DNA of 64,000 bases, taken from a virus (Duplodnaviria > Heunggongvirae > Uroviricota > Caudoviricetes). The position numbers and the translations under genes were made by a program. The stretch lies in the IMG/VR virus record IMGVR_UViG_3300042880_000509. The stretch is one strand, 5' to 3'. The notes under the pieces are model-generated. The model was not told the origin of the DNA. It did no database searches and saw nothing but the letters and a program-made list of their open reading frames with translations. Shown piece by piece: positions 1-52,600 of this stretch; the stretch's first letter is position 1; every line of letters starts with the position of its first letter.

Positions 1-2175
1 TTTTTTATCTTCAACAACATCAACCATAAAGTCATAAAAGTTTTCTGGAAATTCAACACCTCTAGTAAAATAATCAATCATTTTTTTAACCCTTTTTTCC
101 AATGTTTTGTTTTTATTGGTCTCTTCAGTTTCTTCTAATATTGTAGATCCTATTATTCCTTTAAAACTATAATTTATCGTAAAATCTTCAACATCAAGTT
201 TAATTTTTTCACATAATTCTTCTGAAAAATCTCTTAATACATCTCTAATTTCAAATTGTATTTCCCACCAGCTTTCTAGTTCTCTAACATAGTTACCAAA
301 TAAATTATATGGAGTATCATCATCAGTCATAATTAATTCAACAGTTCCTTCTTTAATAGAATAAACAAATTCATGAACATACCCATAATTTTTTACCGAC
401 AGTAGTTCAAATTTAAAATTATATCCCCCAGTTCCTCTTTGAATGTCGTTAGTGGAAAAAGTTTTTTTAGTAAGATATTTTGTTAATAACATTTCCGGAG
501 TTTCATTAAGAATCTTACCTAATCTTTCAATACCATTAACTCTTTGTATTGCCCTTATTAAACCCTCGTTATCAATAATTTTTAACATAGTTGATTTTAA
601 AGATGAACTTTTTTCTTCAGATTCATTTAATGGTTCACCACCAAACATTTTAGATTCTTTTTCCCTTCTTTTTTTTACACCAGGAAATCTGCGGAATGAC
701 CTTGAACTTTCTTTTTTGATTTGTTCTTTTGCTTTGTCCAATTCATTTTGTTTTACATATTTAATAAATTGACTCTTTTTGAAATTACCAATACCCATGT
801 TATACATCATTGAAATCATTGCATTATACATGTCTTGATCTATATCTGGTGTAATCCCGTCTTTTTCCCAATCATCAAGGATTTTATTTAATTGTTCCTT
901 TGTTTTATCAAGATCGTCTCTTAAAACTTCCTCTGCTTGTTTTTTTGTTATCTTTGTTTTACCAACAATAACTTTATTATACTTTGGAATGAATGGATAG
1001 TCTCCTCCGGTATTACCCATACTCTTGTCCCTAAAAATTGCATGACCATATCCTATTGTTTTGGCACCATCACCGATATCATATGCTGTTAAAACAGGTT
1101 CACCTCTATTTTCTATTGATCCCTCTTCATTTTTTATGTGCTGGACCAGTTTTTCATCGTAATCTCTGATTCTTTTTTTTGTTTGTATTTCAGGTTTCTT
1201 TTCGGTCTCTCCTTTTTTTTCACTACCTCCACCACCAGGAGCTTTTATTTGTTCCAAGTTTGGTTCTTCTTTTGTTAGATCATCATAGATATTATTCATT
1301 TGTGTTATTGAAAGTATCCCAACAAATGAATAAATAACATATTTTAAAATCTTATGTTTAATATTGTCACTAACATTTTTTATCTTATCAAATAATGTTT
1401 TGATATATGATATTGCTTGGTCTTTTGTTTTAACCCAATCAAGAGATTTATCAACATTCTTTTTAACTTCAAATTCCCATTCAGCGTCCGGTTTTTTTTC
1501 TTCATTAAGTATTCTACATAACTCAACAACTCTATCAAGATATCTTAAACTTTCTTCGTTCATATCTCTTGTATATTTTCTAAACCTACCAGGATTTGCT
1601 TTGATTGCCGACTTTGGGAATCTTGTTCCAACTCCTTGTCTTCTTGCCATTTTTAATGTTCTACCATATTCATCAAGATCCTTTTTCTTTCTACCTTGAC
1701 AATGTGCTTTTTGAGAAAATCCTTTTGGGTTATTACAATCAATTGATCTTTTATATTTTTCGGACCACTTCTCTGTTAATTCTTCATCTTTATGTTCTGG
1801 AAATATAAATTCAGAAAATGAACTTTTAGTTTCGGGTGTGACGTTTTTTGCAAGTTCTTTCCATTCATCACAATCTACACCACCACCCATCCATTCCCAA
1901 ACTTTAATATTGTTAGGTAAAACAGATTCAATCTTTTTTTTAATCCTTGAAAATTCACTATGTGGTGTGTGAAGTGCGGTAAAGATTGGAAAGATCTTAA
2001 CTTCATTAAAGGTTGGGAAGGCAACAATATAAAAACTACAAACTGACTTATTCGGTCTTACATGTTTTAAAATTAATTTTATTTTCCTTACATCTCGTAA
2101 AGATTTTTCATGTTGTTCTTGAGTGTATTCCTTATCCTCACCTTCTTTTAATATTTTATTCAAATAATCAAACAT
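1..2175 (-). CDS. Large (>725 aa, C-terminus beyond window) protein with internal GH24 T4-lysozyme-like domain; likely virion-associated cell-wall degrading protein
   Basis: Minus-strand ATG at 2175, open to the window edge. Translation contains EEGSIENRGEPVLTAYDIGDGAKTIGYGHAIF, matching the T4 lysozyme E..D..T-IG-GH catalytic motif, and MISMMYNMGIGNFKKSQF (GH24 helix). N-terminus MFDYLNKILKEGEDKE resembles the shared leader. A Gly-rich linker GGGGSEKKGETEKK follows. Confidence 0.7.
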   Translation of the reverse strand, partial: MFDYLNKILKEGEDKEYTQEQHEKSLRDVRKIKLILKHVRPNKSVCSFYIVAFPTFNEVKIFPIFTALHTPHSEFSRIKKKIESVLPNNIKVWEWMGGGVDCDEWKELAKNVTPETKSSFSEFIFPEHKDEELTEKWSEKYKRSIDCNNPKGFSQKAHCQGRKKKDLDEYGRTLKMARRQGVGTRFPKSAIKANPGRFRKYTRDMNEESLRYLDRVVELCRILNEEKKPDAEWEFEVKKNVDKSLDWVKTKDQAISYIKTLFDKIKNVSDNIKHKILKYVIYSFVGILSITQMNNIYDDLTKEEPNLEQIKAPGGGGSEKKGETEKKPEIQTKKRIRDYDEKLVQHIKNEEGSIENRGEPVLTAYDIGDGAKTIGYGHAIFRDKSMGNTGGDYPFIPKYNKVIVGKTKITKKQAEEVLRDDLDKTKEQLNKILDDWEKDGITPDIDQDMYNAMISMMYNMGIGNFKKSQFIKYVKQNELDKAKEQIKKESSRSFRRFPGVKKRREKESKMFGGEPLNESEEKSSSLKSTMLKIIDNEGLIRAIQRVNGIERLGKILNETPEMLLTKYLTKKTFSTNDIQRGTGGYNFKFELLSVKNYGYVHEFVYSIKEGTVELIMTDDDTPYNLFGNYVRELESWWEIQFEIRDVLRDFSEELCEKIKLDVEDFTINYSFKGIIGSTILEETEETNKNKTLEKRVKKMIDYFTRGVEFPENFYDFMVDVVEDKK

Positions 2176-3742
2176 TATTTTCAACCTTGTTTCTTAATAT
2201 TTTAATAAATTCGTTTTGGATTTCTTTAACCAAATCAACAAAAGATTTTTTAGGTGTGTCACTTGTTTGGGTTCCAAGTTTTCCTAACTTACTCATTGCA
2301 ACTTCTATTTGTTTGTCAGAAAGATTACCCCACTTTAATAATTTTCCTTTAATATCATTTAAAAAAGTATCATCACCTACATATGTTGCAATTGGTAATA
2401 GTTCTTCTGGAACATCATCTAATTTTGGTTCTTTTTTATTTCTATATAGATAATTAATTCCTGATATATTTGTTATACATTTGTGTCCACCACTATTTGC
2501 TTTTATAACATCTAAACCACTTACAGTTATTTTATCAAGTAATACTCTTTGTTTTTCAGATAGACTTCTGTATAGCTTTTCAGATACATTATCAAGTATT
2601 TCAAGTAATTTACTTCCACCATCAACTTTGAATGATGGTCTGTCGCTATATATTGCCATTAAGTCTTTTAATGTAAAACCAACTGAACTATATTCTGTTT
2701 CTAATTCTGCAATTCTTTTAAGATCACCGAATGTTATTTTTAAATTACTTAATTCGTTTGAAAATTTATCTAAAACCTCATCTTTGATTTCACCTAGATC
2801 AACACCTTTTAATGCTCTTTCTTTTTTAAATGGATTACAAGATGCTTGGACCATACCCATTGGCATACCAGTAACTAAAAAGTCTGCGTCCGGATTGTTT
2901 TTAAATGGTGTATAACGATCATAAGCTCCAGCTTTTGATGTACCACCAAAACCATATTGTGTAATTATATTTCCAAAAGTTTCAACACCTTTTTCTTTTC
3001 TACTTTGAATATAGTTTTCTTTATTTTTTGTCATCTGTTCAGGATTTGCGTATCCTTTTTCAGTCGCCTCTTTTCTAATGTTATTTAGAATACTAAGTAG
3101 TGATGGTTGTGAATTTAATACTAAACTATCTAAAAACCCTGGTTTATTTTTATATGCTAAAAGTAACTTGTTAACAACAAGACCCATCATCATTTTATTT
3201 CTTTTTAAACTCTCATCTTTGTTGTAATTAAACAAGTAATTCATAACCATTTCTGGTGTTATATCGTGTTTAACAAAGTCAGCAGAGTCAACCGTTGAGA
3301 TTAATAGAATATCTTCAGATGGAAATATCTCTTTTGGTGATATAGATTGAGATATTGTTTCTACATTTGACCTTGACTGTTTAAAGTTTGTTGATGTATT
3401 TTTTTCAACACCGGCTTGCGTATCGTGGTGATCTGTATGTATGACAAACATTGGTTTACCGTGAGCAAAATCAACAAGAACTGGCATCACATCACCTGAA
3501 GCGTCTGGTTTTTTAATTGCAAATTCTTTATTACCATATTGTATTAATTCAGCATCAACAACTTTAATTCCGTTTTGTTCCAAATAATTTTTCATAGCAA
3601 TTGCTGTTGTCACACCATCTAAATCCATGTGATAATAGATCTTTGCTTTCTTATATCTTCTAGCAAGATCTTTTATTCCTCTGATTCCACTCTCAAGAAG
3701 TAATGTTTCTTCTTTAAGTATTTTTCTAATAAGTTCTTTCAT
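2168..3742 (-). CDS. DHH-family phosphoesterase (524 aa) with shared N-terminal leader
   Basis: Motifs HMDLDGVTTAIA (DHH motif I), VLVDFAHG (II), HTDHHD (III) and a C-terminal SGGH (IV). N-terminus MKELIRKILKEET is the leader. Confidence 0.65.
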   Translation of the reverse strand: MKELIRKILKEETLLLESGIRGIKDLARRYKKAKIYYHMDLDGVTTAIAMKNYLEQNGIKVVDAELIQYGNKEFAIKKPDASGDVMPVLVDFAHGKPMFVIHTDHHDTQAGVEKNTSTNFKQSRSNVETISQSISPKEIFPSEDILLISTVDSADFVKHDITPEMVMNYLFNYNKDESLKRNKMMMGLVVNKLLLAYKNKPGFLDSLVLNSQPSLLSILNNIRKEATEKGYANPEQMTKNKENYIQSRKEKGVETFGNIITQYGFGGTSKAGAYDRYTPFKNNPDADFLVTGMPMGMVQASCNPFKKERALKGVDLGEIKDEVLDKFSNELSNLKITFGDLKRIAELETEYSSVGFTLKDLMAIYSDRPSFKVDGGSKLLEILDNVSEKLYRSLSEKQRVLLDKITVSGLDVIKANSGGHKCITNISGINYLYRNKKEPKLDDVPEELLPIATYVGDDTFLNDIKGKLLKWGNLSDKQIEVAMSKLGKLGTQTSDTPKKSFVDLVKEIQNEFIKILRNKVENNV

Positions 3743-4117: not shown

Positions 4118-4510
4118 TTACCAGTTTCTTTCTGTGTTGGTATTAATTTCTTCCTGGACTCTTACTAATGTTTTAATTTTATACTTTTTGAACATTCTTT
4201 CACCGATTGCGTATCCTATGTTATATAAACCAATTGCGTTTGTCCCACTATAATAATACACATTAATCCACACGATAAACCTTGGGTATTTATTACCGTA
4301 AATATCAAATCTTGATTCTTCTTTATTAATATCATTAATTTCAATTTTATCAATTAAGTTTGCAGCTTCACAATCATCAAATCCCAACCAACCAGGAAAA
4401 GTATCAGCATCCGGATCTTCCTCACAAATACTTTTAATTTCATCAAAGGTTGATAGAACTAATCTTTTAATTGTGTTTGAGAATTGACTTTCAGTTATTA
4501 GAAATTTCAT
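4118..4510 (-). CDS. Hypothetical protein with shared leader (MKFLITESQ...)
   Basis: 130 aa ORF. The N-terminal 20 aa match the leader seen on at least 10 other proteins. Confidence 0.6.
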   Translation of the reverse strand: MKFLITESQFSNTIKRLVLSTFDEIKSICEEDPDADTFPGWLGFDDCEAANLIDKIEINDINKEESRFDIYGNKYPRFIVWINVYYYSGTNAIGLYNIGYAIGERMFKKYKIKTLVRVQEEINTNTERNW

Positions 4511-5474: not shown

Positions 5475-6395
5475 CTACATCCTGTCTGAATACATTTCGT
5501 AAAACTTTTCTGGCATTTTTAAATGGTCAAGATTTATAGGTTCTGATTGTCCTTTATTTTCCAATCTTTTTATAAATTCACGGATTCTAGGATAACCGCT
5601 CCAGTTTTGCCATTTTGAAATTATTTTTACATTACTAGGTATTGATTCATACGTTTGTTTTGTTGTTGGGTCAATAAGTCCAACAAAGTCAAAATCATCT
5701 TTAATATGTTTCCAAGCTTGTGTTCCTCCAGCAGAAAAACCACTTACAGATTTTATCTTATAATCATTTATTCCATTTTTAGTTAAAACATTTTTTAAAG
5801 TATCCAATGAATTTTCAAAATTACTATAAACTACATTTCTATCCGAAAAATATTTATCACCACCATTATTTTTCATCCATTTTGCACCATAAGTAGAGCT
5901 AGGATAACCGCCCCAAATAACAGTAATATCATCCGAATCGGGATCGTTCATTTCTATAATATATGTTCCACCATTTATTGTTTTACTTTCTTTTTTTGTT
6001 TCTTGTTTTTTTGGTTCTGATTTTTTATTTTTTTCTTCAGTATCTTTTTCTTCTGTTTTTTTTGAGAGTATTGATTTTAATTTTTCAATATCTTCAGTAT
6101 TCATTGTTCCGGTAACTTCTAGTCCTTCTTCTTCTTGGAATTTTTTTACATTTTTTTCTGTTTCATTTCCGTATTTACCATCAATACCAAATTTACCAAA
6201 ACTATAACCTAATTTATCAAGACCGGCTTGAATTGCAGCAACACCTTTAGTAAATGAGTAATTATTCATTCCTTTTCTATGGATTTCTCCACCGTCAATA
6301 ATTTCATCTAAATCATTTATGTAATCTTCAAATGATTTATTTTCAAGTAATCTTATCAATCTAGAAGTTTGACTTTCAGTTAGTATTATTTTCAT
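5475..6395 (-). CDS. Peptidoglycan-binding domain plus serine hydrolase (alpha/beta, G-F-S-A-G nucleophile elbow) with shared leader
   Basis: PG_binding_1-like GLDKLGYSFGKFGIDGKYGNETEKNVKKFQEEEGLEVTG. Lys/Glu-rich linker. C-terminal domain with GFSAGG (GxSxG). N-terminus MKIILTESQTSRLIRLLE. Confidence 0.65.
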   Translation of the reverse strand: MKIILTESQTSRLIRLLENKSFEDYINDLDEIIDGGEIHRKGMNNYSFTKGVAAIQAGLDKLGYSFGKFGIDGKYGNETEKNVKKFQEEEGLEVTGTMNTEDIEKLKSILSKKTEEKDTEEKNKKSEPKKQETKKESKTINGGTYIIEMNDPDSDDITVIWGGYPSSTYGAKWMKNNGGDKYFSDRNVVYSNFENSLDTLKNVLTKNGINDYKIKSVSGFSAGGTQAWKHIKDDFDFVGLIDPTTKQTYESIPSNVKIISKWQNWSGYPRIREFIKRLENKGQSEPINLDHLKMPEKFYEMYSDRM

Positions 6396-6397
6396 AG

Positions 6398-7936
6398 TTA
6401 TGGTTGCATTATTGTTGAAACATATTCATATGTTTCTTTTGGTAATTTATCTTTAAGGTCTTTAAATGATGTCTTGTTTTTTAATGCGTCAAAATAAACT
6501 TGTTTACCTGACTTTGGTGGGTATTGATACCATGCTCCACTATTATATGCGGCAATAGCAAGATCTAATCTTCCTGGGAATCTTCTAACATTTTCTGACA
6601 TTAGTTTTACATAAGCAGGTAAAGCGTCTTCAACCTTACAAGGATCACCTTTACCATATGAAGGCCAAGTTGTTGGCATAAATTGTGCGATACCTCTTGC
6701 TCCGGCTGTAGATGTATTTTTACAACTTATAACAGATGGTGAAAAAGCAGATTCGGCATATAATTGTCTCATGGCATATTTTATTGGGATTCCACCACTT
6801 TCAACCTCTGATTTAAATTTATTAAAATTAACGCCTTGTATATTTTTAAATTGTTCTTCTAAGTTTGATGGTATACTTCTTATTTTCACACCTGGATTTG
6901 TTATAACAAAAGATGTATTTTCTTCTGAACCACCTGACCCTTTTTTAACATCTTCAATTTGTCTACCAGAATATGTTTTAAATATCTTTTGGGTTAATTT
7001 ATCTTGGGTTTTTAAATCAAAAATTCCACTTTCGTTTAATCCATTATTTTTTTGGAATTTAGTAATTGCAACTTTAGTATTTCCATCAAGAATCCCATTA
7101 ATTTCTATTGAGTTATCTTTTGTTACGATAAACAATATTACTTGCATCATTCTTATTTTTTTGTCAGAACTATTTTGGTCAACAACTTCATTAGTTTTTA
7201 AAAATTCAAAGTATCTTTCAAAAAACTTTTTAAACTTTTCTTTTTTATCGTCATTAGTATTACCAGTTGTTTGGGTTTGGTTTGTCTTTTTTGTTTCTTT
7301 GATATAAGTCTCAACATGATCTTTAATTGTTTTGTGGTTTGATGGTCCTATGTGTATTCCATCTCCTGCCGCCCAATTACCATCACCACTTACCGTTGGT
7401 ATTATAATAGCATTTTTAATTTGTGAAGAAAGATCTTTTTGTAATTGGATCATTCTTTCTCTTCCTTTATACATACAATTTTGATCACAAAGGACTCTAC
7501 CATCTGGATATTTAGTTGGTTTTAAATTCTTATCTGTCATAACAGAACCCGCTTCATATCCTAAAAAAACATAAGCCTGACCACCTTGTTCATTAACAAC
7601 ATCTACCATTTTTTGGATGTTTGTTACGGCATTTGATAAATTGGTTCCTACCCAAAAAGCATCATTTGTTCCGCCGTATATGAATACTTTATCGTATTTT
7701 TTTTCTTTTAGTTTTGGTAACATATTACTCAACATCCAGTCTGTTTTTTTTCCTCCTTCAACAACATGAGTAACATTCCAGTCTGGGTGTGCTTTTGATA
7801 ACAAATAATTCCAGGTTTTTCCTCCGGTACTTAAACTGTCGCCAACAAACATGACATTTTCTTTAACTCTATCGTCATTTTCAGTTATTAAATTAACAAG
7901 AAATTTGAATTGGTTTTCAGAGACAAGTATTTTCAT
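6398..7936 (-). CDS. Three-domain cell-wall enzyme: SGNH/GDSL hydrolase, peptidoglycan-binding domain and SLT lytic transglycosylase, with shared leader
   Basis: FVGDSLS (GDS motif) and GGTND (SGNH block III). PG_binding_1-like VAITKFQKNNGLNESG. C-terminal ES...GARGIAQFMPTTW...AAYNSG (SLT family 1). N-terminus MKILVSENQFKFLVNLITE. Confidence 0.75.
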   Translation of the reverse strand: MKILVSENQFKFLVNLITENDDRVKENVMFVGDSLSTGGKTWNYLLSKAHPDWNVTHVVEGGKKTDWMLSNMLPKLKEKKYDKVFIYGGTNDAFWVGTNLSNAVTNIQKMVDVVNEQGGQAYVFLGYEAGSVMTDKNLKPTKYPDGRVLCDQNCMYKGRERMIQLQKDLSSQIKNAIIIPTVSGDGNWAAGDGIHIGPSNHKTIKDHVETYIKETKKTNQTQTTGNTNDDKKEKFKKFFERYFEFLKTNEVVDQNSSDKKIRMMQVILFIVTKDNSIEINGILDGNTKVAITKFQKNNGLNESGIFDLKTQDKLTQKIFKTYSGRQIEDVKKGSGGSEENTSFVITNPGVKIRSIPSNLEEQFKNIQGVNFNKFKSEVESGGIPIKYAMRQLYAESAFSPSVISCKNTSTAGARGIAQFMPTTWPSYGKGDPCKVEDALPAYVKLMSENVRRFPGRLDLAIAAYNSGAWYQYPPKSGKQVYFDALKNKTSFKDLKDKLPKETYEYVSTIMQP

Positions 7937-7985: not shown

Positions 7986-8183
7986 TTAGTGATTCAATTT
8001 TACTTTCCAGAAGTTGAAAAGTTCTTTATTGTTATAGTTATTTTTTTTACTGTCCCAACCACACATGTGGCAAAGGTATGGATGTTGATCTTCTTTTTCT
8101 TTACTCCAAGAATGACCACATTTACATTTGATCTTCTCACCAAAAAGTTTTTCAGCTTGTTTTTCTGTGATTAGAATTTTCAT
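7986..8183 (-). CDS. Small Cys/His-rich protein with shared leader
   Basis: MKILITEKQAEKL leader. CKCGH...CHMCGW suggests a zinc-binding fold. Confidence 0.5.
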   Translation of the reverse strand: MKILITEKQAEKLFGEKIKCKCGHSWSKEKEDQHPYLCHMCGWDSKKNNYNNKELFNFWKVKLNH

Positions 8184-9034
8184 AGGTTGTTAAAATTTCC
8201 TTTTTTGATTTTTTTATCGTCCAAAATAAAACATTTGTTTTCAACATCAATTTTATAACTTTTGTTTGGAAATGAAATATAATCACCGGTTGTAATATCA
8301 ACCAACATAATGTTTTCAACCTTCATACCAAGATAATTCTTTGGTAGTGGTGTGTTTAATATTAATTTTCCATCTTCTTCTGACATACCAGTTAATTCCT
8401 TTACTTGGAAACTCTTTCCGTTAATCTCCAAATCAATTCCGTGATCTCTATCTTGTTTAGATCCTGGAGGAAAATATTTGATATCGTATTTAGAGTTTTT
8501 TAATTTGTCAATAACATATTTTTCAGTGATACTTCCTTTATTGTAGGTATTCATATTAGCCCTAATAAGTTCTTTTAAAATAGGACCTTCATTTAATAAC
8601 CTTTCTTTATTATCAACTAACCATTTATAAAAATCTTTTGGTGTTTCACCTTTCTTTTCTTTTTTGAATATGTTTAGCAATCTATCTTTAACAAATTTGT
8701 GACCACCAAAATAATTTAAAATTGACCAACTTGTTAGTTCGTTAAGTGGATGTATGTCAATAATACCGCGTTTACTTTTATCTTCGTTCCAATCCAAATT
8801 ATCTTTATAAATTTCAAACAATAATTTATTTAAAAATTTAGCAAACCTACTATTATTTTGGATAAATTCAATATTTAAATTTCCTGGGTTGTTATCTTCT
8901 GAATCCACAATATTAATATAACCTTCTAATGATTTATCATTATTATTTTGATTAAAGTCAATTTCCATTTGATTTTCTGTTAGTCCCATCAAACTCAAAT
9001 TTCTTTTTATTTCGTTAATTATTGTTTTTTCCAT
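8180..9034 (-). CDS. Hypothetical protein (284 aa)
   Basis: Long ORF in coding-like sequence. Start overlaps the upstream gene stop (ATGA), suggesting translational coupling with the paralog array. Confidence 0.55.
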   Translation of the reverse strand: MEKTIINEIKRNLSLMGLTENQMEIDFNQNNNDKSLEGYINIVDSEDNNPGNLNIEFIQNNSRFAKFLNKLLFEIYKDNLDWNEDKSKRGIIDIHPLNELTSWSILNYFGGHKFVKDRLLNIFKKEKKGETPKDFYKWLVDNKERLLNEGPILKELIRANMNTYNKGSITEKYVIDKLKNSKYDIKYFPPGSKQDRDHGIDLEINGKSFQVKELTGMSEEDGKLILNTPLPKNYLGMKVENIMLVDITTGDYISFPNKSYKIDVENKCFILDDKKIKKGNFNNL

Positions 9035-9705
9035 TATTCAAAATTCTCCTCTTTTAATATTATTGGTTCACCTTTTGTAGTATTTCTTTCAACCCATACA
9101 TGATATAAATAACCATTATTATTTTGATTGTATAATTTTAATACTCCGTTACCACCGGCGTCTTCATCCCAACTATCGGTTTCTAATACTTCACTAATCA
9201 TCATTATTACGTCATAAGCAAAAAATCTGGTGTCTTGACGATTTAATTCCTTATTATTATATGTTATTGTACAGTCAAAATTATTTTCGTGTCCAGAATA
9301 ATCAATTATAAGTTCTTCAAGTTCCATATCTTCCATAAATTTTGATAGTGAATAATAGTCTCTTAATTGTCTCCAATCAAATTTCCTATTATCTTTTGAT
9401 TCTGTATATGTAAAATATTTTGGTATTAACATTATTTCTCTTTTTTTTGGATAAACACTAAAATCAACCCAGTATGCTGGTTCGTGTTTATCTGTTCTAT
9501 TATAAAGTTCTTCACCATAATTGGTTAGTATTGAATGAAAAAACTTTTTAAATATATCAATAATTGTAAATCTATGAGTTCTTTCTGTTACCCAATTTTC
9601 AGGAAAATGCTCAATATCACCAATCAACATATCAATATTTGTTCCTATTGGCCCAATTGGATTAAGGTATGCCATTAGTGCTCTAAATGTTCTTTTTTTT
9701 AACAT
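9034..9705 (-). CDS. Tandem-paralog family member 1 (223 aa), most divergent copy
   Basis: N-terminus MLKKRTFRALMAYLNPIG. Shares the YPKK..I and W-x-DAGGNG motifs with the neighbouring copies. Confidence 0.6.
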   Translation of the reverse strand: MLKKRTFRALMAYLNPIGPIGTNIDMLIGDIEHFPENWVTERTHRFTIIDIFKKFFHSILTNYGEELYNRTDKHEPAYWVDFSVYPKKREIMLIPKYFTYTESKDNRKFDWRQLRDYYSLSKFMEDMELEELIIDYSGHENNFDCTITYNNKELNRQDTRFFAYDVIMMISEVLETDSWDEDAGGNGVLKLYNQNNNGYLYHVWVERNTTKGEPIILKEENFE

Positions 9706-9710
9706 ATTAT

Positions 9711-10388
9711 TTAAGGTAAAGAATCTTCTGTTATTTCAATATCAATTTCATTTGAATCATCGTCCTCAGTATTCCACTCGTGATTAACACTTATTTCATC
9801 TTTTGTAAATACAATATTTCCTTGTGATCCTTCATTTATTTCCCAGCCCCCATATTCTTCGAGTAAATCATAGCAAATATGTTCAATATCTTCATCTATT
9901 TGTCCATTCTTATTTTTAGATGTATAATCACTTTCAATGTATCCGGAATCACCACCACCATTATAACTTATAGTCATATCTTCAATTCCTTCGTGTTCTA
10001 AGAATTTTCTTACTTCCATAAATGTAGAATACATACCATCATCTTCTTCATAATCATCAATATATACTTCATATCCACTATCTGATGTGCCGTATGATGT
10101 AAACCTAACTTGGTTAAAAACAATTTTATTTTCAAACGGATAAATCTCTCCATCAACATAAAAATAATCACTTGCACTTTGTACAGAGCCAGGACCTTCA
10201 TCGTATAATTCATTGGTATATAGTTCAAGAATTGTTTGGAGATGTGATTCAAAATTTGATGTAATATCAACACCGTAATAAATATTTATATCTTCAATAT
10301 GAGTTTCACTTATTGTAATTTCAAAAGGTATTGATTCCTTTTTAAACCCTTTCAGGTATGCCATTAACATTTTAAATTTTTTTTTCAT
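9711..10388 (-). CDS. Tandem-paralog family member 2 (225 aa)
   Basis: MKKKFKMLMAYLKGFKK. Contains IYPFENKIVF, NGGGDSGYIES, GGWEINEGSQGNIVF and HEWNTED. Confidence 0.65.
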   Translation of the reverse strand: MKKKFKMLMAYLKGFKKESIPFEITISETHIEDINIYYGVDITSNFESHLQTILELYTNELYDEGPGSVQSASDYFYVDGEIYPFENKIVFNQVRFTSYGTSDSGYEVYIDDYEEDDGMYSTFMEVRKFLEHEGIEDMTISYNGGGDSGYIESDYTSKNKNGQIDEDIEHICYDLLEEYGGWEINEGSQGNIVFTKDEISVNHEWNTEDDDSNEIDIEITEDSLP

Positions 10389-11086
10389 TATTGGTAAGTA
10401 TCTAAATTTATTTCTAATCTCATATCAGTTGGTTCGTAATCTTGATCTTTGGTAAAACCTTTTACAAAAATACTGTCACCCCAAACTATAATGTTTCCTT
10501 CAGCACCGGCTTCCATATTCCAAAACCTACTATTAGTTATTTTTTGCATAAGTTCATTAGTAATCATCCATAAATCTTCACTCATTTGATTGGTAATTTT
10601 AATTAGTTGTCCATCAAGTTCAAGATCGTAAATATGACCATCATCCCAACGACCATAAAAATCAAATTCAAATTTTACTAGGTCTTCATTATCTTCATAA
10701 AATGATAATATTCTTTCTTTACTTTCTTTTGACATATCACCATAATATGTATCATATTTAAATCTTTCTCTATTTTCAACTTTACATGAAGATGTAAAAA
10801 TAATTTTATTTTCAAATGGATGTATTTCAATATTCAAATACCAATATTCGTCAATATCTAAATCAAGATAGTTATAAAAATCATCCATGTGATTTTTAAT
10901 TAATTCTTCTATGAATTTTTCAAAATGTGATGGTAATAATAGTCTTTTTGTATTTCTTTGTTCATTTGTCACATCAAATCTACCCCAATCTTCAATGTGA
11001 GTCCTATCCATTACAATAGAAGTATCAACAAGATGTCCTTTGAGTCCTCTTAAAAAAGCAAAAAATAATTTTAATCTTTGTTTCAT
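10388..11086 (-). CDS. Tandem-paralog family member 3 (232 aa)
   Basis: MKQRLKLFFAFLRGLKG. Contains IHPFENKIIF and WNMEAGAEGNIIVWG. Shares 1 nt with the neighbouring gene. Confidence 0.65.
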   Translation of the reverse strand: MKQRLKLFFAFLRGLKGHLVDTSIVMDRTHIEDWGRFDVTNEQRNTKRLLLPSHFEKFIEELIKNHMDDFYNYLDLDIDEYWYLNIEIHPFENKIIFTSSCKVENRERFKYDTYYGDMSKESKERILSFYEDNEDLVKFEFDFYGRWDDGHIYDLELDGQLIKITNQMSEDLWMITNELMQKITNSRFWNMEAGAEGNIIVWGDSIFVKGFTKDQDYEPTDMRLEINLDTYQ

Positions 11087-11772
11087 TCTTCTATATTGTC
11101 CGGTGTTACATTTATATTCATTTCTGTCATCTCATGATCTTTGGATTTTGTAAAAAATTCCATTCTTATTGATTTATCTTTCTCAACGTAAATTGTACCG
11201 TAACTACCAGGTCCATCAGTCCACCATCTGTCAAGAATATTTGTCATTAATTGATCTGTTAACTCAATATAATTTATATCGTCATTTATAAAAATATAAA
11301 AATCAAGGTTAACATCTATTTGATCATAATTACCATTAAATTCAAAATTAAATTTATCTTTATCTTTTAGATCTTCATTAAATATTGTATCAACTAAATC
11401 AAGAGTAGTTGTTGATAATTGTGTATTTTTTCTATTTAAACTAAATGTTTGTTGGCCATCATATTCGCTTACTATCTCACATTCGCTTTGAAAATTTATT
11501 CTATTTTGTTTTGGGTAAACATATACAAGTAATGTCCACCATTCACTTTCATCATAATCGTTTTCTCTGTGAAACTTTTGCATATATGATTTTAATATGT
11601 CCTCAAATGTCTCTTGTAATTTTGTTGGTAATTCTATTTCTTTACCTTCTTTGGTTGTAAATTTTAAATCCCAACTTTCCATATGGTTATAGTCAAAATT
11701 GATATATGTATCCAATACATCTGTTTTAAATGCTCTAAAATATGCAAGTAATAATTTTAATTTTTGTTTCAT
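11083..11772 (-). CDS. Tandem-paralog family member 4 (229 aa)
   Basis: MKQKLKLLLAYFRAFKT. Contains VYPKQNRINF and WWTDGPGSYGTIYVE. 4-nt overlap with the neighbouring gene. Confidence 0.65.
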   Translation of the reverse strand: MKQKLKLLLAYFRAFKTDVLDTYINFDYNHMESWDLKFTTKEGKEIELPTKLQETFEDILKSYMQKFHRENDYDESEWWTLLVYVYPKQNRINFQSECEIVSEYDGQQTFSLNRKNTQLSTTTLDLVDTIFNEDLKDKDKFNFEFNGNYDQIDVNLDFYIFINDDINYIELTDQLMTNILDRWWTDGPGSYGTIYVEKDKSIRMEFFTKSKDHEMTEMNINVTPDNIEE

Positions 11773-12437
11773 TCTTCCAGGTCATCTTCTTTAATTTCAA
11801 TTGTATCATGACAATCAACCATTTCTCTCATATTCCATTCGTGAGAAATTACAATTTCCAAATTATTATTTAATTCAATTGTTCCGACAGATCCGTCATC
11901 TATCTCCCAACCACCGTAAGCGTTTTCTAGATTATCATAAAGTGTGTTCCAAATTAATTTATTGTCATCACTATCTGAATGCCAGGTAATGTTTGAACTT
12001 TCACCATCAACTGTTATTGAATCGATATCTCCGCTGTCTCCACCACCACTATATCTTGCTTCAATTATTTCAACACCAGTTGTTTTAAAATAATCTTCTA
12101 ATTCTGGGTTTTTTAATTTTCTTTCATAAGTTTCAGCTTGTGATGTATATTCTTCTGCTTTCATTGAAACCACAATTTTTTTATCTTTCGGGTATATGTC
12201 GGCAATTACATTATAGTAATCGCTTTCACTCCAGCAATCTATATCATTTATTTGATCTTCTATTGACTCTAAAATATCAGTAATAAGGTTAACAATATTT
12301 TTAGGTAGTGATTGTATTTCAACACCAAAAGGCCATTGCCATTCAGTATTACCATCATAATTGTTCCATATAACAGATATTTTGTCCTTTTTGAGTTTAG
12401 ACAAAAAAGACATTAACATTCTAAATTTTCTTTTCAT
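11769..12437 (-). CDS. Tandem-paralog family member 5 (222 aa)
   Basis: MKRKFRMLMSFLSKLKK. Contains IYPKDKKIVV, YSGGGDSGDIDS, GGWEIDDGSVGTIEL and SHEWNMRE. 4-nt overlap with the neighbouring gene. Confidence 0.65.
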   Translation of the reverse strand: MKRKFRMLMSFLSKLKKDKISVIWNNYDGNTEWQWPFGVEIQSLPKNIVNLITDILESIEDQINDIDCWSESDYYNVIADIYPKDKKIVVSMKAEEYTSQAETYERKLKNPELEDYFKTTGVEIIEARYSGGGDSGDIDSITVDGESSNITWHSDSDDNKLIWNTLYDNLENAYGGWEIDDGSVGTIELNNNLEIVISHEWNMREMVDCHDTIEIKEDDLEE

Positions 12438-12450
12438 ATTTTATAAATAC

Positions 12451-12804
12451 TTAGTCATCAAATTTAAGATCAAGTGTTCTCATCATCCACATAGGTTTTT
12501 CTTTGGCTTCAATTGCTTTTATCCATTCTTTTGCCGATGGAATATAATTAAAACAATCTTCTTTTACGTGATCCTCACCAACATATCTGGTATAAACCTT
12601 TTTTCCGTCACTATTTTCAAATGATTCTCCGAATATTTTTTCACATTCAAATATACCTTCTGAATGGTGTCTAAACATTCTGTGTGTTGAATGTCCTATC
12701 CAGGATTTTGTTTGATCAAACCAATTATGGATGTGAATGTAGTCTTCTACTTTTCCCCCGTATTTCTTAACGGAACTTTTTGCATGAATTAATGGGTGTG
12801 CCAT
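12451..12804 (-). CDS. His-rich hypothetical protein (117 aa), first gene of the minus-strand operon containing the paralog array
   Basis: Non-repetitive ORF with multiple His (IHIHNWF, HSTHRMFRHHSEG). Divergent from the plus-strand gene at 12867. Confidence 0.55.
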   Translation of the reverse strand: MAHPLIHAKSSVKKYGGKVEDYIHIHNWFDQTKSWIGHSTHRMFRHHSEGIFECEKIFGESFENSDGKKVYTRYVGEDHVKEDCFNYIPSAKEWIKAIEAKEKPMWMMRTLDLKFDD

Positions 12805-12866
12805 AAGTATTTCTTTTTTTAATAAGTATAGATTTCACAACCCATTTTTGTAGTATTTATATTAAT
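12805..12866. promoter_or_regulatory. Divergent intergenic region between the 12804 (-) and 12867 (+) gene starts; presumed bidirectional promoter region
   Basis: 62-nt AT-rich gap between divergent start codons. No promoter motif was confidently identified. Confidence 0.3.
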
Positions 12867-13559
12867 ATGAAAAACCTTATTAGGAAAATATTAAAAGAAG
12901 AGACATCTGACAGAGCAAAAGAAAAACTTGTAAAGCCATATCTTTCAAAATTTGAAAATGTTGGTTATGTTGAAAACGATGATATACCATATTTTGAATC
13001 TAATAGTTTAAATGAGAATAGTAATCCAGTCAAAAACTTTTGGTTTAAAAAATGGACCAAACAAAAAGAAAAGGGTGAGAATCCATCAATTTATGATATT
13101 GAAAAGTTAGGGTTTTCTAATAAAAGAAATGAGATTGTTCAATACTTTGTAGATTTTATGGGTTACGGTGATGGAAACACAAGATCTAACGCTATTAAAC
13201 AATATCTCTTAAATCATACTTTTACGGAGAAAGAAATTACCGAAATGGATAACTTTGATCAGGGTAAAATTCAAATAAGATTTAATAAAGTTCAATTTTT
13301 AGAAAGTCAAAATAATTACGGTAAAAACTTTTTAGATTTAGATTGCGAATTTGTTGTTTTAAGTGGTTCATTTTATAATAGTGAAGAAGGTGAAACTTAT
13401 AACTTTTCAAGTGACGATAATCCATTTGATGATTTTGTAACATACTTTGAGTTTAAAGAAGAAATAGAACAAGTTGTTGAGAGTTTTGTACATAAAGTTG
13501 TTGAGTTGTTTGGTTTTAATATAAACAATGATTTTGATTATATCAGTGTAAAATGGTAA
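12867..13559 (+). CDS. Hypothetical protein with shared leader (MKNLIRKILKEET)
   Basis: 230 aa. Leader nearly identical to that of the DHH protein. Stop overlaps the next start (TAATG). Confidence 0.6.
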   Translation: MKNLIRKILKEETSDRAKEKLVKPYLSKFENVGYVENDDIPYFESNSLNENSNPVKNFWFKKWTKQKEKGENPSIYDIEKLGFSNKRNEIVQYFVDFMGYGDGNTRSNAIKQYLLNHTFTEKEITEMDNFDQGKIQIRFNKVQFLESQNNYGKNFLDLDCEFVVLSGSFYNSEEGETYNFSSDDNPFDDFVTYFEFKEEIEQVVESFVHKVVELFGFNINNDFDYISVKW

Positions 13560-14134
13560 TGAAAAATTTAATTAAAAAAATATTAAAGGAAGAGGAAGGT
13601 AATAAGGTTGTAAAAAACTATGTTACTAAAATGTTTAAAAAACAAGTTGATTCTGGTTTAACACCACGCATACCATATGAAGATTTACGAAAAAAAAAAC
13701 TTACCCAACATATTGAGCTAATTGATAAATGGTATTTTGAATTTTTGGAAAATCATTATGGTGTTAGTAGTGGTTTTGAAAAAGCTAAAACTTTATATGA
13801 AGAAGCGGTTAAGACTGTTACTGAAAAGGATTTAAAAAGTGTTGACATTGATACTGGCCAAGACAAATTTTTGGTATCAATTCCCTGGATAGAGTTTTAT
13901 GATATAGATTCTGAAAGAAGAAATGTTGTTTTTGGTTTTGCGATAATTGACTGTTATTTAGAAACTGATAATGGAATGAAAACATATGAAGAAATGTTAG
14001 ATAATACGTTTCCAGATTACATGTGGAATGATGTAACTGATATTTTAAGACAACAAATTGAGGAATATGTTCAAATTAGGGGTTACGATTTTGGTCTTGA
14101 TATTCTTGTTTCAGAATCGGTTTGGTCTGATTAA
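13559..14134 (+). CDS. Hypothetical protein with shared leader (MKNLIKKILKEEE)
   Basis: Start taken at the second ATG (13559), overlapping the upstream stop. Followed by a hairpin terminator. Confidence 0.6.
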   Translation: MKNLIKKILKEEEGNKVVKNYVTKMFKKQVDSGLTPRIPYEDLRKKKLTQHIELIDKWYFEFLENHYGVSSGFEKAKTLYEEAVKTVTEKDLKSVDIDTGQDKFLVSIPWIEFYDIDSERRNVVFGFAIIDCYLETDNGMKTYEEMLDNTFPDYMWNDVTDILRQQIEEYVQIRGYDFGLDILVSESVWSD

Positions 14135-18275: not shown

Positions 18276-19874
18276 ATGATACATTCACGTAAACTAATAT
18301 TATTTTCATCAATATCTTTGATGTTCATATTCCTATTAACTAAAACATTAATTTTATTAAATTTAGTTAGTCCTAGCGACATCACAAGGGTTATTGAAAT
18401 GTTTTGTTTTTTAACATTTTCACCATTATTTTATTTTTTAATGAAAAAACAAAATGTGGACTTGAAAAGTGGTTTATTAAAACAAATTAAAGATAGTGAA
18501 GAATTTATTGATTCCGCAACAATTGTTTCTGTTGCCGATAAGTATGGTAAAATCACATACGTTAATAAAAAATTTGAAGAAGTTTCTGGGTGGTCTTTAG
18601 ATGAGGTTAAAGGTATGGATCATAGTGTTGTTAACTCTGGCTTGCAACCTGATGGGTATTGGGGAAAGATGTATGAGACTGTAATGAAAGGTGAGATATG
18701 GAATGATGTTGTTACAAATAAAGGAAAGTCGGGTGAACTATATTATGTTGATACATACATCAAAGCAAAATTTGATAAGAAGGGTAAGTTAGATGGGTTT
18801 TCATCCATCAGACAAGATGTTACAGAACTTAAAAGAAAAGAAATGGAAATCCGTAATAGAATGAACGCAATAAATAAATCTAATGCTGTTATTGAGTTTG
18901 ATTTAGAAGGAAACATCATTTTTGCTAATGAATTGTTTTTAAATACTATGGGTTATTCTTCGCCGGATGAAGTAATTGGGAAACACCACAGAATTTTTAT
19001 TGATGAAGATCACTTAAAAAGTGAGGAATATTCTATTTTTTGGAAAAAACTAAATGATGGTATATTATTTACTGGTGAAATTACTAGAGTCAAAAAAGAC
19101 GGGTCTTTAGTTTATTTACAAGCAACTTACAACCCAATTATTGGTGTGGATGGTAAGATTTATCGTGTTATGAAAATAGCAACAGACGTAACCAATTCTT
19201 ATGAACAAAAGAAAGAGATAGAAAAGAAAAATACCTATTTAGAACACGCTGCTAAAATATTAAGACACGATATGCACTCTGGTATTAACACATATATGCC
19301 AAGAGGGTTAAGTTCTTTAGAAAGAAGGTTAAGTTCTGAAGATATTACATCGTTAAAGATTGAAGCTCCAATTAGAATGATTAAAGAAGGATTAAAACAT
19401 TCTCAAAAAGTATATAAAGGAGTTTATGAATTTACCAATCTAGTTAAAAAAGATGTTGTTTTAAATAAAACTGAATGTAATTTAAAATCAATTTTATCTG
19501 ATTACCTATCATCAACAGCATATTTAAGTCAAGTAATTATTGAAGACTTACCTACAATAGAAGTAAACGAAGCGTTATTTTGTACCGCAGTTGATAATTT
19601 AATTAGAAACGGTTTAAAATATAACGATTCAGATACCAAATTTGTTAAAATTTATTCCGATGAGAATAATATTTACATACAAGATAACGGTAGAGGAATC
19701 ACACAAGAAGATTTTGATCACTTATCTAAACCATACACAAGAAAAGAAGGGCAAAAAGAATCTGGTACTGGTTTAGGTTTAAATATTTGCGTTGCTATTT
19801 TAGAAGAGCACGGGTTTAATATTACTTGTGAGAAAAATGAAATAGGAACAAAAATGAAAATAAAAATAAAATAA
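18276..19874 (+). CDS. Membrane-anchored sensor histidine kinase with two PAS domains
   Basis: Two N-terminal hydrophobic helices. PAS 1: ATIVSVADKYGKITYVNKKFEEVSGWS...DGFSSIRQDVTE. PAS 2: AVIEFDLEGNIIFANELF...DGKIYRVMKIATDVT. H-box region AAKILRHDMHSG. HATPase_c N-box NLIRNGLKYN, G1 DNGRGI, G2 GTGLGLNI. Confidence 0.8.
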   Translation: MIHSRKLILFSSISLMFIFLLTKTLILLNLVSPSDITRVIEMFCFLTFSPLFYFLMKKQNVDLKSGLLKQIKDSEEFIDSATIVSVADKYGKITYVNKKFEEVSGWSLDEVKGMDHSVVNSGLQPDGYWGKMYETVMKGEIWNDVVTNKGKSGELYYVDTYIKAKFDKKGKLDGFSSIRQDVTELKRKEMEIRNRMNAINKSNAVIEFDLEGNIIFANELFLNTMGYSSPDEVIGKHHRIFIDEDHLKSEEYSIFWKKLNDGILFTGEITRVKKDGSLVYLQATYNPIIGVDGKIYRVMKIATDVTNSYEQKKEIEKKNTYLEHAAKILRHDMHSGINTYMPRGLSSLERRLSSEDITSLKIEAPIRMIKEGLKHSQKVYKGVYEFTNLVKKDVVLNKTECNLKSILSDYLSSTAYLSQVIIEDLPTIEVNEALFCTAVDNLIRNGLKYNDSDTKFVKIYSDENNIYIQDNGRGITQEDFDHLSKPYTRKEGQKESGTGLGLNICVAILEEHGFNITCEKNEIGTKMKIKIK

Positions 19875-19891: not shown

Positions 19892-20329
19892 ATGATTGAT
19901 TCAATTTTATTGGTGGATGATGAGGATTTATTCCATTTGGTGTTTGAGGATGCTTGTTCGTTATTAGACATAAGTTTGTCTTTAAATGCGTTAAATAGTT
20001 CTGACGAGGCAGCAAAACTATTTCAAAAATGGTTCCAGGATGGTGACAATAATGATAAACCTGAATGTGTGTTTGTTGACTTAAACATAATTGGTAGTTC
20101 TTTTGATGGTATAGAGTTAATTAGAAAAGTTAATTTTGAATATGGTAATCACGTAGTTATTGGTATCATATCATCATCAAACGAACCGGAAGAACAAGCA
20201 AAAGCGCTCCAGGCTGGTGCTCAATTCTGGATTATTAAATCAGATGATATTGAACCTCGTTTAGAAGAGTTCAGAAAAGATTATGATGGGTATAAAAATA
20301 GAACAGCACCATTTAAAGTATATAAATGA
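19892..20329 (+). CDS. Stand-alone response-regulator receiver (REC) domain protein
   Basis: ILLVDDE (acidic pocket), VFVDLNIIG (phospho-acceptor Asp), GIISSS (conserved S/T) and FWIIKS (conserved Lys). No output domain. Confidence 0.75.
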   Translation: MIDSILLVDDEDLFHLVFEDACSLLDISLSLNALNSSDEAAKLFQKWFQDGDNNDKPECVFVDLNIIGSSFDGIELIRKVNFEYGNHVVIGIISSSNEPEEQAKALQAGAQFWIIKSDDIEPRLEEFRKDYDGYKNRTAPFKVYK

Positions 20330-52165: not shown

Positions 52166-52600
52166 TTATTTTGGTGTGATTCTATATTTGAAGAAGGGTA
52201 TGTTTGTTTTTACTTTTTTTACATCGTGATGATCATTATAATCCATCTTAACCATTTCTTCATAATCAATGGTGTATTTGTTGTCATTATAATTTGATGT
52301 TAATTCATCGCCTTTTTTAATATCTTTGATTGTTTTACCATAAATTTTATTACCAACTTTGGTATTTTTGATATTTGGATCAAAACTATGATTAAGGTAT
52401 CTAACCGGTTCTCCACCAAAATAGGACCCATCTTTGATTATAACATAAAGATATTCAGTATTTTTTTTAATATCTTCTTTAGCAAAAACACCTTTTCCGG
52501 CAATTTTACTTTTTTTTACTTCAATTTTATCATAAAAAGAATTATCTAACTTTTTTTTATTAGTCTCCTCAGTTAAAATTCTTTTTATAATTGATTTCAT
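52166..52600 (-). CDS. SET-domain protein (putative protein-lysine methyltransferase) with shared leader
   Basis: SKIAGKGVFAKEDIKKNTEY (GxG motif), RYLNHSFDPN (NHSxxPN) and GDELTSNY (ELxxxY). N-terminus MKSIIKRILTEET. Confidence 0.65.
   Translation of the reverse strand: MKSIIKRILTEETNKKKLDNSFYDKIEVKKSKIAGKGVFAKEDIKKNTEYLYVIIKDGSYFGGEPVRYLNHSFDPNIKNTKVGNKIYGKTIKDIKKGDELTSNYNDNKYTIDYEEMVKMDYNDHHDVKKVKTNIPFFKYRITPK

Follow-up and report, generated by a model that had tools for sequence, protein, structure and literature searches.

Why would a phage carry five diverged copies of one small gene in a row? The question is raised by a 64,000-nucleotide stretch of DNA (here the window) from the IMG/VR virus record IMGVR_UViG_3300042880_000509 (Caudoviricetes), in which five consecutive minus-strand genes, c1 to c5, had been described from the sequence alone (the original prediction) as a tandem array of paralogs matching no recognised family. 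The analysis reported here places these genes in the DUF6878 family and, together with an adjoining DUF6915 gene, in a two-gene module that is shared by phages and plasmids; neither this pairing nor the link to a nuclease-like gene formed part of the original prediction. The structural and genomic part of this picture, comprising the family, the two-unit architecture, the operon, the linkage, the variation in copy number, the evolutionary rates, the conserved loops and the link to a nuclease-like gene, is nearly certain. The interpretation that we favour, although with somewhat less than even confidence, is that DUF6915 and DUF6878 form a conserved module of mobile elements that aids incoming DNA, and that its variable partner has expanded in this lineage to give the five genes.

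Results

Five coupled genes of one old family

The five open reading frames (ORFs), of 222-232 amino acids (aa), were all recovered where the original prediction had placed them (Table 1). The stops and starts were said to overlap by 1-4 nucleotides (nt); this was the case at the c5/c4 and c4/c3 junctions (4-nt overlaps, ATGA) and at c3/c2 (a 1-nt overlap, TAATG), but c2 and c1 were separated by a 5-nt spacer. Between c1 and the gene after it (8180-9034) there was again a 1-nt overlap. A terminator scan, a type of scan that is uninformative in DNA as AT-rich as this, revealed no terminator-like site within the array.

Paralogy was far above chance when BLASTP was run with the database size set to 1e8, with values of 1.6e-22 for c3-c4, 1.1e-18 for c2-c5, 8e-11 for c2-c3 and 3.5e-4 for c4-c5; together with the coupled junctions, these values bore out the description of a diverged, translationally coupled array. 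The pairwise matches of c1 were marginal (best 0.38, to c2), and its membership of the family was established from a full-length colinear alignment, a match to the family hidden Markov model (HMM) and its conserved position and order in relatives. Identity among the five copies was 16-34%. Similarity between copies at the DNA level was limited to stretches of no more than 76 nt, 65-82% identical, at homologous motif positions, which ruled out recent duplication or gene conversion and indicated that the duplications are old.

The shared motifs that had been proposed were only partly exact, since few columns were invariant in all five copies; those that were include P86, I91, G138, W179, G184 and G187 (c1 numbering). 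All of the copies were hydrophilic (grand average of hydropathicity ~ -0.7) and acidic, with net charges of -11 to -38 and isoelectric points (pI) of 4.05-5.09. The c2 protein, with a net charge of -38, was the most acidic product of the 94 ORFs in the window and c5 the third most acidic (net charge -27, pI 4.28).

Two of the five copies are canonical DUF6878 proteins

The statement that no family match could be recognised did not hold. Against a gathering cut-off of 24.3 bits for Pfam DUF6878 (PF21798), c2 scored 44.3 bits and c5 scored 29.0 bits; c1, c3 and c4 had no Pfam match and were tied to c2 and c5 by BLASTP and the family HMM. A set of 5.8 billion proteins contained 1035 homologs of c2, and PF21798 was the precomputed annotation of all 120 that were listed. 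An exhaustive profile search resolved the DUF6878-like family into 1310 clusters at 50% identity; its members were all unnamed metagenomic proteins, and the distant clusters were all labelled "hypothetical protein".

The family signature consists of two loops, YxGxGDxG and GWExNxGxxG. These loops read GGGDSG and GWEINEG in c2 and GGGDSG and GWEIDDG in c5, so that the GGGDSG motif was indeed confined to two copies, as originally noted; both loops were missing from c1, c3 and c4, in which only W...G..G is left. Judged by sequence, strict DUF6878 membership holds for two of the five copies (c2 and c5), and c1, c3 and c4 are derived paralogs.

An AlphaFold2 model of c2, built from a 45-sequence alignment, was confident (predicted local distance difference test score, pLDDT, 92.7; predicted template modelling score, pTM, 0.71) and had the order helix, hairpin, helix, hairpin twice over, which corresponds to two tandem alpha-beta-beta-alpha-beta-beta units. 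The C-terminal half aligned with single-domain bacterial DUF6878 (hhalign 98.4%, E 7e-15), and this unit is a bona fide DUF6878 domain. The N-terminal half aligned in register with the same bacterial profile over 86 columns but weakly (E 4.6e-4, probability 33%), and is probably a degenerate duplicate of the DUF6878 unit. Natural proteins with two canonical units also exist (P0357, P0372, P0379 and P0385), and from these proteins and the two alignments each copy was read as a tandem pseudo-dimer with a degenerated N-terminal unit. The basic amphipathic N-terminus that had been described for the copies was real, but in the model it formed the first helix of the fold (pLDDT ~96) and not a signal-like tail, and its counterpart in the alignment was the helix before the first strand of canonical DUF6878 units. 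Its place within the modelled fold, this alignment and the hydrophilic character of the proteins ruled it out as a signal, targeting or anchor peptide.

Among solved and annotated structures the c2 model had no convincing relative; its only significant match in BFVD was another "DUF6878 domain-containing protein" from an uncultured phage. In keeping with the original prediction, no structural protein was matched in PHROGs, BFVD or the PDB. Nothing meaningful was obtained for any copy from PHROGs, NCBIfam or PADLOC, sequence-profile searches of the PDB with the array and with DUF6915 gave no match, and a comparison of the module proteins with PADLOC-DB 2.0 returned only two weak, chance-level matches (E 0.0079 and 0.0015; 13-15 bits).

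DUF6878 genes accompany DUF6915 in phages, bacteria and plasmids

A gene encoding a DUF6915 protein sits 13 nt upstream of c5. At least 526 viral and at least 444 genomic DUF6915 loci were found, and 80 of each were sampled, with ORFs called mechanically; a DUF6878-like gene was present in 77 of the 80 viral and 75 of the 80 genomic loci (152/160). In phage loci with a single copy, the DUF6878-like gene was always on the same strand as DUF6915 (61/61), mostly downstream of it (54/61, with a median gap of 13 nt) and mostly of two-unit size (53/61). In bacterial single-copy loci the two genes were again on the same strand (74/74), and here a single-unit DUF6878 gene lay upstream of DUF6915 in 70 of 74, abutting or overlapping it.

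The viral loci carried one copy (61 loci), two (11), four (2), five (1) or six (2), frequencies that describe the loci most similar to the bait and are not population estimates. Arrays of at least four copies were confined to relatives of the window. The single viral copies were canonical and motif-bearing in 60 of 61 cases, and the array copy adjoining DUF6915 was canonical in every array; the motif-less c3, c4 and c1 types were found only in arrays.

When a bacterial two-unit member was used as the tblastn query, DUF6878 was found on 56 Roseobacter-group plasmids, 50 of them conjugative. The gene 2 nt downstream of the plasmid DUF6878 encodes DUF6915 (E 6e-46), and the DUF6915 protein of the window was 46-47% identical to its Roseobacter plasmid homologs. 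Residues H3, H7, D21, H26, D30, H41, R42, H46, H47, E55, E77, H79, E82 and D83 of DUF6915 were invariant. The neighbours of the bacterial pair were strawberry notch helicase, DUF736, ArdC, RadC, ParB_N, DNA methylase, DUF932, NikA and relaxase-type helicase genes, which are typical establishment genes of conjugative elements. Tblastn searches of 50,697 deposited phages with c2 and with the bacterial two-unit protein gave no match, and a cultured phage carrying a recognisable DUF6878-like gene was not encountered.

A separate array was seen in an alphaproteobacterial metagenome-assembled genome (locus L106, 1007-8503, on a 5.46-Mb contig), in which 7-8 tandem single-unit DUF6878 genes surround one DUF6915 gene. 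It is an independent expansion in a bacterial chromosome.

Copy number varies and the copies evolve quickly

Across 14 related loci the class order c5-c4-c3-c2-c1 was fixed and copy number was variable. Five copies were present in the window and in L001, L006, L010, L013 and L014, and six in L009, which has an extra c4-like copy. Four were present in L002, L003, L011 and L012, comprising c5, one c3/c4-like copy, c2 and a very diverged c1, and three in L004 and L005, which have c4, c3 and c1 only and lack DUF6915 as well as c5 and c2. The expectation that copy number would vary among related phages was thus borne out, with three to six copies in close relatives and one or two in most other phages. 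The picture of a diversified array needs one amendment: the copies are diverged and variable in number, but the array is not rapidly churning, since its paralog classes are old orthologous lineages, their order is fixed and the DNA shows no recent duplication.

The copies evolved faster than their neighbours, as expected for proteins that face variable targets. In distant relatives the copies were 26-60% identical, compared with 76-93% for DUF6915, Metallophos and an 82-aa gene (p82); between nearly identical genomes, with flanks of 95-100% identity, c2 was 80-82% and c5 70-93% identical. Gene-wide ratios of nonsynonymous to synonymous substitution rates (dN/dS, Nei-Gojobori) were 0.11-0.93 for the copies, never exceeding 1, with values of 0.50-0.68 for c2 in all three comparisons; they were 0.00-0.08 for DUF6915 and 0.10-0.19 for the nuclease-like gene that follows c1. 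Within 114 c2-type orthologs the GGWEINEGSQG loop was invariant (entropy 0.01) and GGGDSG nearly so, and the first hairpin of the N-terminal unit was hypervariable (entropy 2.0).

The c1 copy is tied to a nuclease-like gene

The protein encoded directly after c1 has an alpha-beta-beta-beta-alpha-beta core fold with an E/D...D...(E/Q)xK motif, which places it in the PD-(D/E)xK group. Residues E171, D201 and Q210-x-K212 were invariant, and the model of the 284-aa protein had a pLDDT of 85.5. Only 51 homologs were found, all of them in this phage group. Compared with the PD-(D/E)xK nucleases NhoI, I-Ssp6803I, Hjc and RecU, the protein, a putative nuclease, differs in having a helical N-terminal region of ~165 aa without a match.

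The nuclease-like gene was restricted to multi-copy loci (7 loci, versus 0/61 single-copy viral loci) and always lay directly after the last array copy. In P0361/P0392 (501 aa) and in L021 (510 aa) a c1-type protein was fused to the nuclease-like protein; because the fusions of the two lineages were only 48% identical, the fusion is a maintained gene.

When L021 (9430-10962) and L012 (6547-8126) were compared, the c1-type parts were 89% identical at the DNA level. The similarity broke off precisely where the nuclease-like part begins; L021 carries this part as a fusion, and in L012 it is encoded by a gene of its own, which specifies 288 aa and is very different. This break points to recombination at the module boundary.

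The operon and its surroundings

The operon runs in the order DUF6915, c5, c4, c3, c2, c1, the nuclease-like gene and a gene for a 65-aa Cys-rich protein (Table 1). Its promoter region is probably the divergent intergenic gap; the co-oriented run from 12804 to 7986 has no other sizeable non-coding stretch before it, and a scan for consensus promoters was uninformative in this AT-rich DNA (43 sites versus 39 expected). The Cys-rich protein had no family match. Its gene was kept downstream of the nuclease-like gene in relatives, with 69-98% identity, and the protein is tentatively assigned to the module. After a 49-nt gap there follow a lysin with SLT, GDSL and peptidoglycan (PG)-binding domains and a PG-binding protein.

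Table 1. Features of the array and its surroundings in the 64,000-nt window
Feature	Coordinates	Strand	Remarks
Cys-rich protein	7986-8183	minus	65 aa; CxC...CxxC; 4-nt overlap with 8180-9034
PD-(D/E)xK nuclease-like protein	8180-9034	minus	284 aa; last module gene linked to the array
c1	9034-9705	minus	223 aa, ATG start; most diverged paralog, coupled to the nuclease-like gene
c2	9711-10388	minus	225 aa, ATG start; canonical two-unit DUF6878 paralog
c3	10388-11086	minus	232 aa, ATG start; motif-less DUF6878-derived paralog
c4	11083-11772	minus	229 aa, ATG start; motif-less DUF6878-derived paralog
c5	11769-12437	minus	222 aa, ATG start; canonical two-unit DUF6878 paralog adjoining DUF6915
DUF6915 protein	12451-12804	minus	117 aa; Pfam PF21866, E 8e-41; first operon gene
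Divergent intergenic region	12805-12866		62 nt; between DUF6915 (minus) and a 230-aa gene (plus); probable promoter region
Second variable region	12867-14134	plus	opposite the array
PAS-domain histidine kinase	18276-19874	plus	PAS and HATPase_c, E 1e-17 and 5e-16
Response-regulator receiver-like ORF	19892-20329	plus	145 aa; after the kinase; starts "MIDSILLVDDED"

The window has a GC content of 29% and is phage-like, with genes for a UvrC-like nuclease, an RNA ligase, a clamp-loader-like ATPase and many cell-wall hydrolases. A megablast search of 50,697 deposited phages with positions 8000-13000 gave no match. Related sequences reach 257-318 kb, so that the window probably derives from a marine jumbo phage.

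Several other features of the region were recorded. Peptidoglycan-directed enzymes are unusually concentrated near the array (5475-7936 and the related loci L004, L006 and L011), and comprise SLT+GDSL+PG_binding, PG_binding, Amidase_2, Peptidase_M23 and Hydrolase_2 proteins and a 790-aa Phage_lysozyme protein. The second variable region is transcribed divergently from the array, and the same slot in relatives holds gene sets of 191+193, 191+230, 185+305, 192+449, 191+614 or 193+227+171 aa; dN/dS for its 193-aa gene was 0.34-0.68. Together, the histidine kinase and the receiver-like ORF would make up a two-component system, something unusual for a phage-like genome.

At least ten otherwise unrelated proteins of the window open with a stereotyped leader, either "MK-x-LI-[RK]-KILKEE..." (type A: 2168-3742, 12867-13559, 13553-14134, 52166-52600 and 59008-60516) or "MKI[IL]ITESQ..." (type B: 4118-4510, 5475-6395, 6398-7936, 7986-8183 and 52612-53847). 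The cell-wall hydrolases are among them, as are the genes that come directly after the array. The 230-aa and 193-aa proteins resembled each other in this leader alone (E 6e-5 over 29 aa), and the leader might act as a signal for targeting, packaging or export.

Discussion

A proposed constant core with a variable partner

The evidence above is read here as a module in which one component is held constant and the other is free to diversify. DUF6915, which is rich in invariant His, Asp and Glu residues, would form the constant and, from its sequence, probably metal-dependent core. The canonical DUF6878 copies may dock to DUF6915, or share its ligand, through their invariant loops, and would confront variable host targets with an acidic surface that diversifies fast, most of all in the first hairpin of the N-terminal unit. 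With extra copies more targets would be covered, and c1 may have taken on a new role, as partner or regulator of the nuclease-like protein. Since the pair is found among the establishment and anti-restriction genes of conjugative elements, its likely role is to help newly entered phage or plasmid DNA, by counter-defence or host takeover; a counter-defence or establishment system is a plausible description of the module. A bolder version, in which DUF6915 plus DUF6878 is an unrecognised and widespread two-component counter-defence or establishment system that combines a metal-dependent enzyme with interchangeable target-recognition or decoy subunits, amplified by jumbo phages to a battery of three to six members, one of which was captured by a nuclease, is unlikely as a whole.

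Several observations weigh against the favoured interpretation. DUF6915 occurs in 127 cultured phage records. In cultured phages, among them Tsamsa-like Bacillus phages, Streptomyces and Gordonia phages, phiM12 and RsoM2USA, another partner that is unrelated to DUF6878 comes after it, so that DUF6878 is not indispensable to it. Examples are Bacillus phage Tsamsa gp184 (L179), Sinorhizobium phage phiM12 gp145-gp146 (L180), Streptomyces phage Yaboi gp136-137 (L181) and Ralstonia phage RsoM2USA gp139-138 (L182). The partners phiM12 gp146, Yaboi gp137 and RsoM2USA gp138 are acidic, share the motif WxQYTPxFNDGExC and have no Pfam family; they were considered as relatives of DUF6878, and no relationship was detected. 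These loci suggest that DUF6915 has alternative partner families. With gene-wide dN/dS below 1 throughout, an arms race accounts for the rates no better than relaxed constraint in redundant paralogs, and ancient classes in a fixed order also fit obligatory co-assembly into one complex. Plasmid leading regions are enriched in anti-defence genes (PMC11541004, a paper that does not mention DUF6878 or DUF6915), and the plasmid copies are no more than candidates for such a position. Finally, no paper in the searchable literature names DUF6878 or DUF6915, and neither experiment nor homology gives either family a biochemical activity.

Other explanations

The bacterial pair resembles a type II toxin-antitoxin operon: an acidic protein of ~130 aa lies directly upstream of a conserved 110-156-aa protein, on the same strand in 74 of 74 loci and with near-obligate linkage, and on plasmids the pair lies near other toxin-antitoxin genes (PrlF/YhaV and HipA). 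DUF6915 could then be a small toxic enzyme that acidic DUF6878 neutralises, with the array supplying several antitoxin or immunity variants, for example against related toxins of hosts or competing elements; polymorphic-toxin loci are known to hold diversified immunity genes in tandem. An invariant toxin needs no diversified antitoxins, however; here a nearly invariant DUF6915 stands beside copies that have diverged below 25% identity. The gene order in phages is also reversed relative to bacteria, the toxin-antitoxin and defence families in Pfam, NCBIfam and PADLOC gave no match, L004 and L005 retain c4, c3 and c1 without DUF6915, and the DUF6915 of cultured phages has an unrelated partner, all of which makes this explanation fairly improbable. 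It is very improbable that the module acts on a small molecule, with the Gly-rich loops of the canonical copies binding a nucleotide-like ligand such as an immune signal, DUF6915 acting as a metal-dependent hydrolase of the same ligand, and the motif-less copies being non-binding derivatives. Sponges and signal-degrading enzymes are established counter-defence strategies of phages, plasmid and phage proteins alike conserve the GGGDSG and GGWEINEGSQG loops, in a pattern typical of ligand or active sites and not of protein-protein surfaces, and DUF6915 has ~14 invariant His, Asp and Glu residues. Yet known sponges and phosphodiesterases resembled the module proteins neither in fold nor in sequence, three of the five copies lack the loops, the nuclease link is left unexplained, and the proposal is entirely inferential.

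Two further explanations start from the array itself. Tight translational coupling, ancient classes in the order c5-c4-c3-c2-c1 across relatives, and a pseudo-dimeric two-unit fold that suits oligomerisation would all be expected if the five paralogs were non-redundant subunits of a hetero-oligomer, either structural or packaged (virion-internal and ejected) or a scaffold built around the nuclease-like protein. Many genes nearby encode cell-wall hydrolases of types that are often virion-associated (SLT/GDSL, PG_binding and Phage_lysozyme), and paralogous families of head-internal proteins are known in phiKZ-like jumbo phages. Whole classes are nevertheless dispensable, relatives having three, four or six copies, most phages one, and plasmids a single unit; the family also resides on conjugative plasmids and bacterial chromosomes, where there is no virion; for subunits of a fixed complex the dN/dS values are high; and the structural-protein searches of PHROGs, BFVD and PDB were negative. 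For a virion-internal family in particular, the N-terminal helix being modelled as an integral part of the fold and the presence of the family on plasmids are unfavourable, and the hetero-oligomer was considered quite improbable. The overlap of c1 with the nuclease-like gene, its fusion to that gene in diverged relatives, and the restriction of the gene to the end of multi-copy arrays suit a different proposal, namely that the copies are regulators, inhibitors or chaperones of the nuclease-like protein in the phage's own DNA metabolism (host-DNA degradation or recombination) and have no anti-defence role; acidic proteins are common as nuclease inhibitors. Most DUF6915-DUF6878 loci have no nuclease, however, with none in the 61 single-copy viral loci and none seen on plasmids, and such a role accounts for c1 at most and not for the canonical copies. 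It is improbable as an account of the array.

Relation to known systems

The closest known proteins are the ~128-aa single-domain DUF6878 proteins of Roseobacter-group plasmids, such as WP_012187110.1 of Dinoroseobacter shibae pDSHI01 and WP_007120652.1 of Sulfitobacter indolifex pDSM14862_f. The C-terminal unit of the window copies is homologous to these proteins, the canonical copies share their loops, and both are carried by mobile elements with DUF6915 as a neighbour. Unlike the plasmid proteins, the window copies are pseudo-dimers of two units, of which the N-terminal one is degenerate, their genes follow DUF6915 instead of preceding it, and there are five diverged copies, three without signature loops and one linked to a nuclease-like gene.

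Like the acidic anti-restriction proteins Ocr and ArdA, the window copies are small, strongly acidic and soluble, and their family is found in phages and conjugative elements; the bacterial pair also lies beside ArdC, ParB-like and methylase genes. In contrast to these DNA mimics, the DUF6878 family needs a conserved, non-acidic partner, DUF6915, and has an invariant Gly-rich site that is atypical for DNA mimics. No structural likeness to ArdA or Ocr, or to an elongated fold displaying DNA-like charge, was seen, and no sequence or fold likeness to the Tad1/2, Acb1/2 or Apyc1 sponges and signal-degrading enzymes. One slowly evolving gene followed by a variable number of fast paralogs in the same operon recalls the hsdS genes that serve one Type I restriction-modification core, or the polyimmunity arrays of polymorphic-toxin loci. 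This likeness is in genetic architecture only, without homology.

Pfam already lists DUF6878 as a domain of unknown function. Judged by the searchable literature, the two-unit phage form, the ordered array of three to six members, the loss of the signature site from some copies and the capture by a nuclease-like gene are new, as is, above all, the pairing of DUF6915 and DUF6878 across plasmids and phages.

A near-obligate pair in which one member is ultra-conserved and the other diversifies quickly is the pattern expected of a system at the interface between mobile DNA and its host, and this pair is common to conjugative plasmids and phages and has repeatedly been expanded into arrays. The Roseobacter plasmids that carry it, including pDSHI01 of Dinoroseobacter shibae and plasmids of Phaeobacter inhibens, are genetically tractable. 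If the module should prove to be a toxin-antitoxin pair or to have a housekeeping role, its recognition would still upgrade the annotation of thousands of hypothetical proteins in marine viromes.

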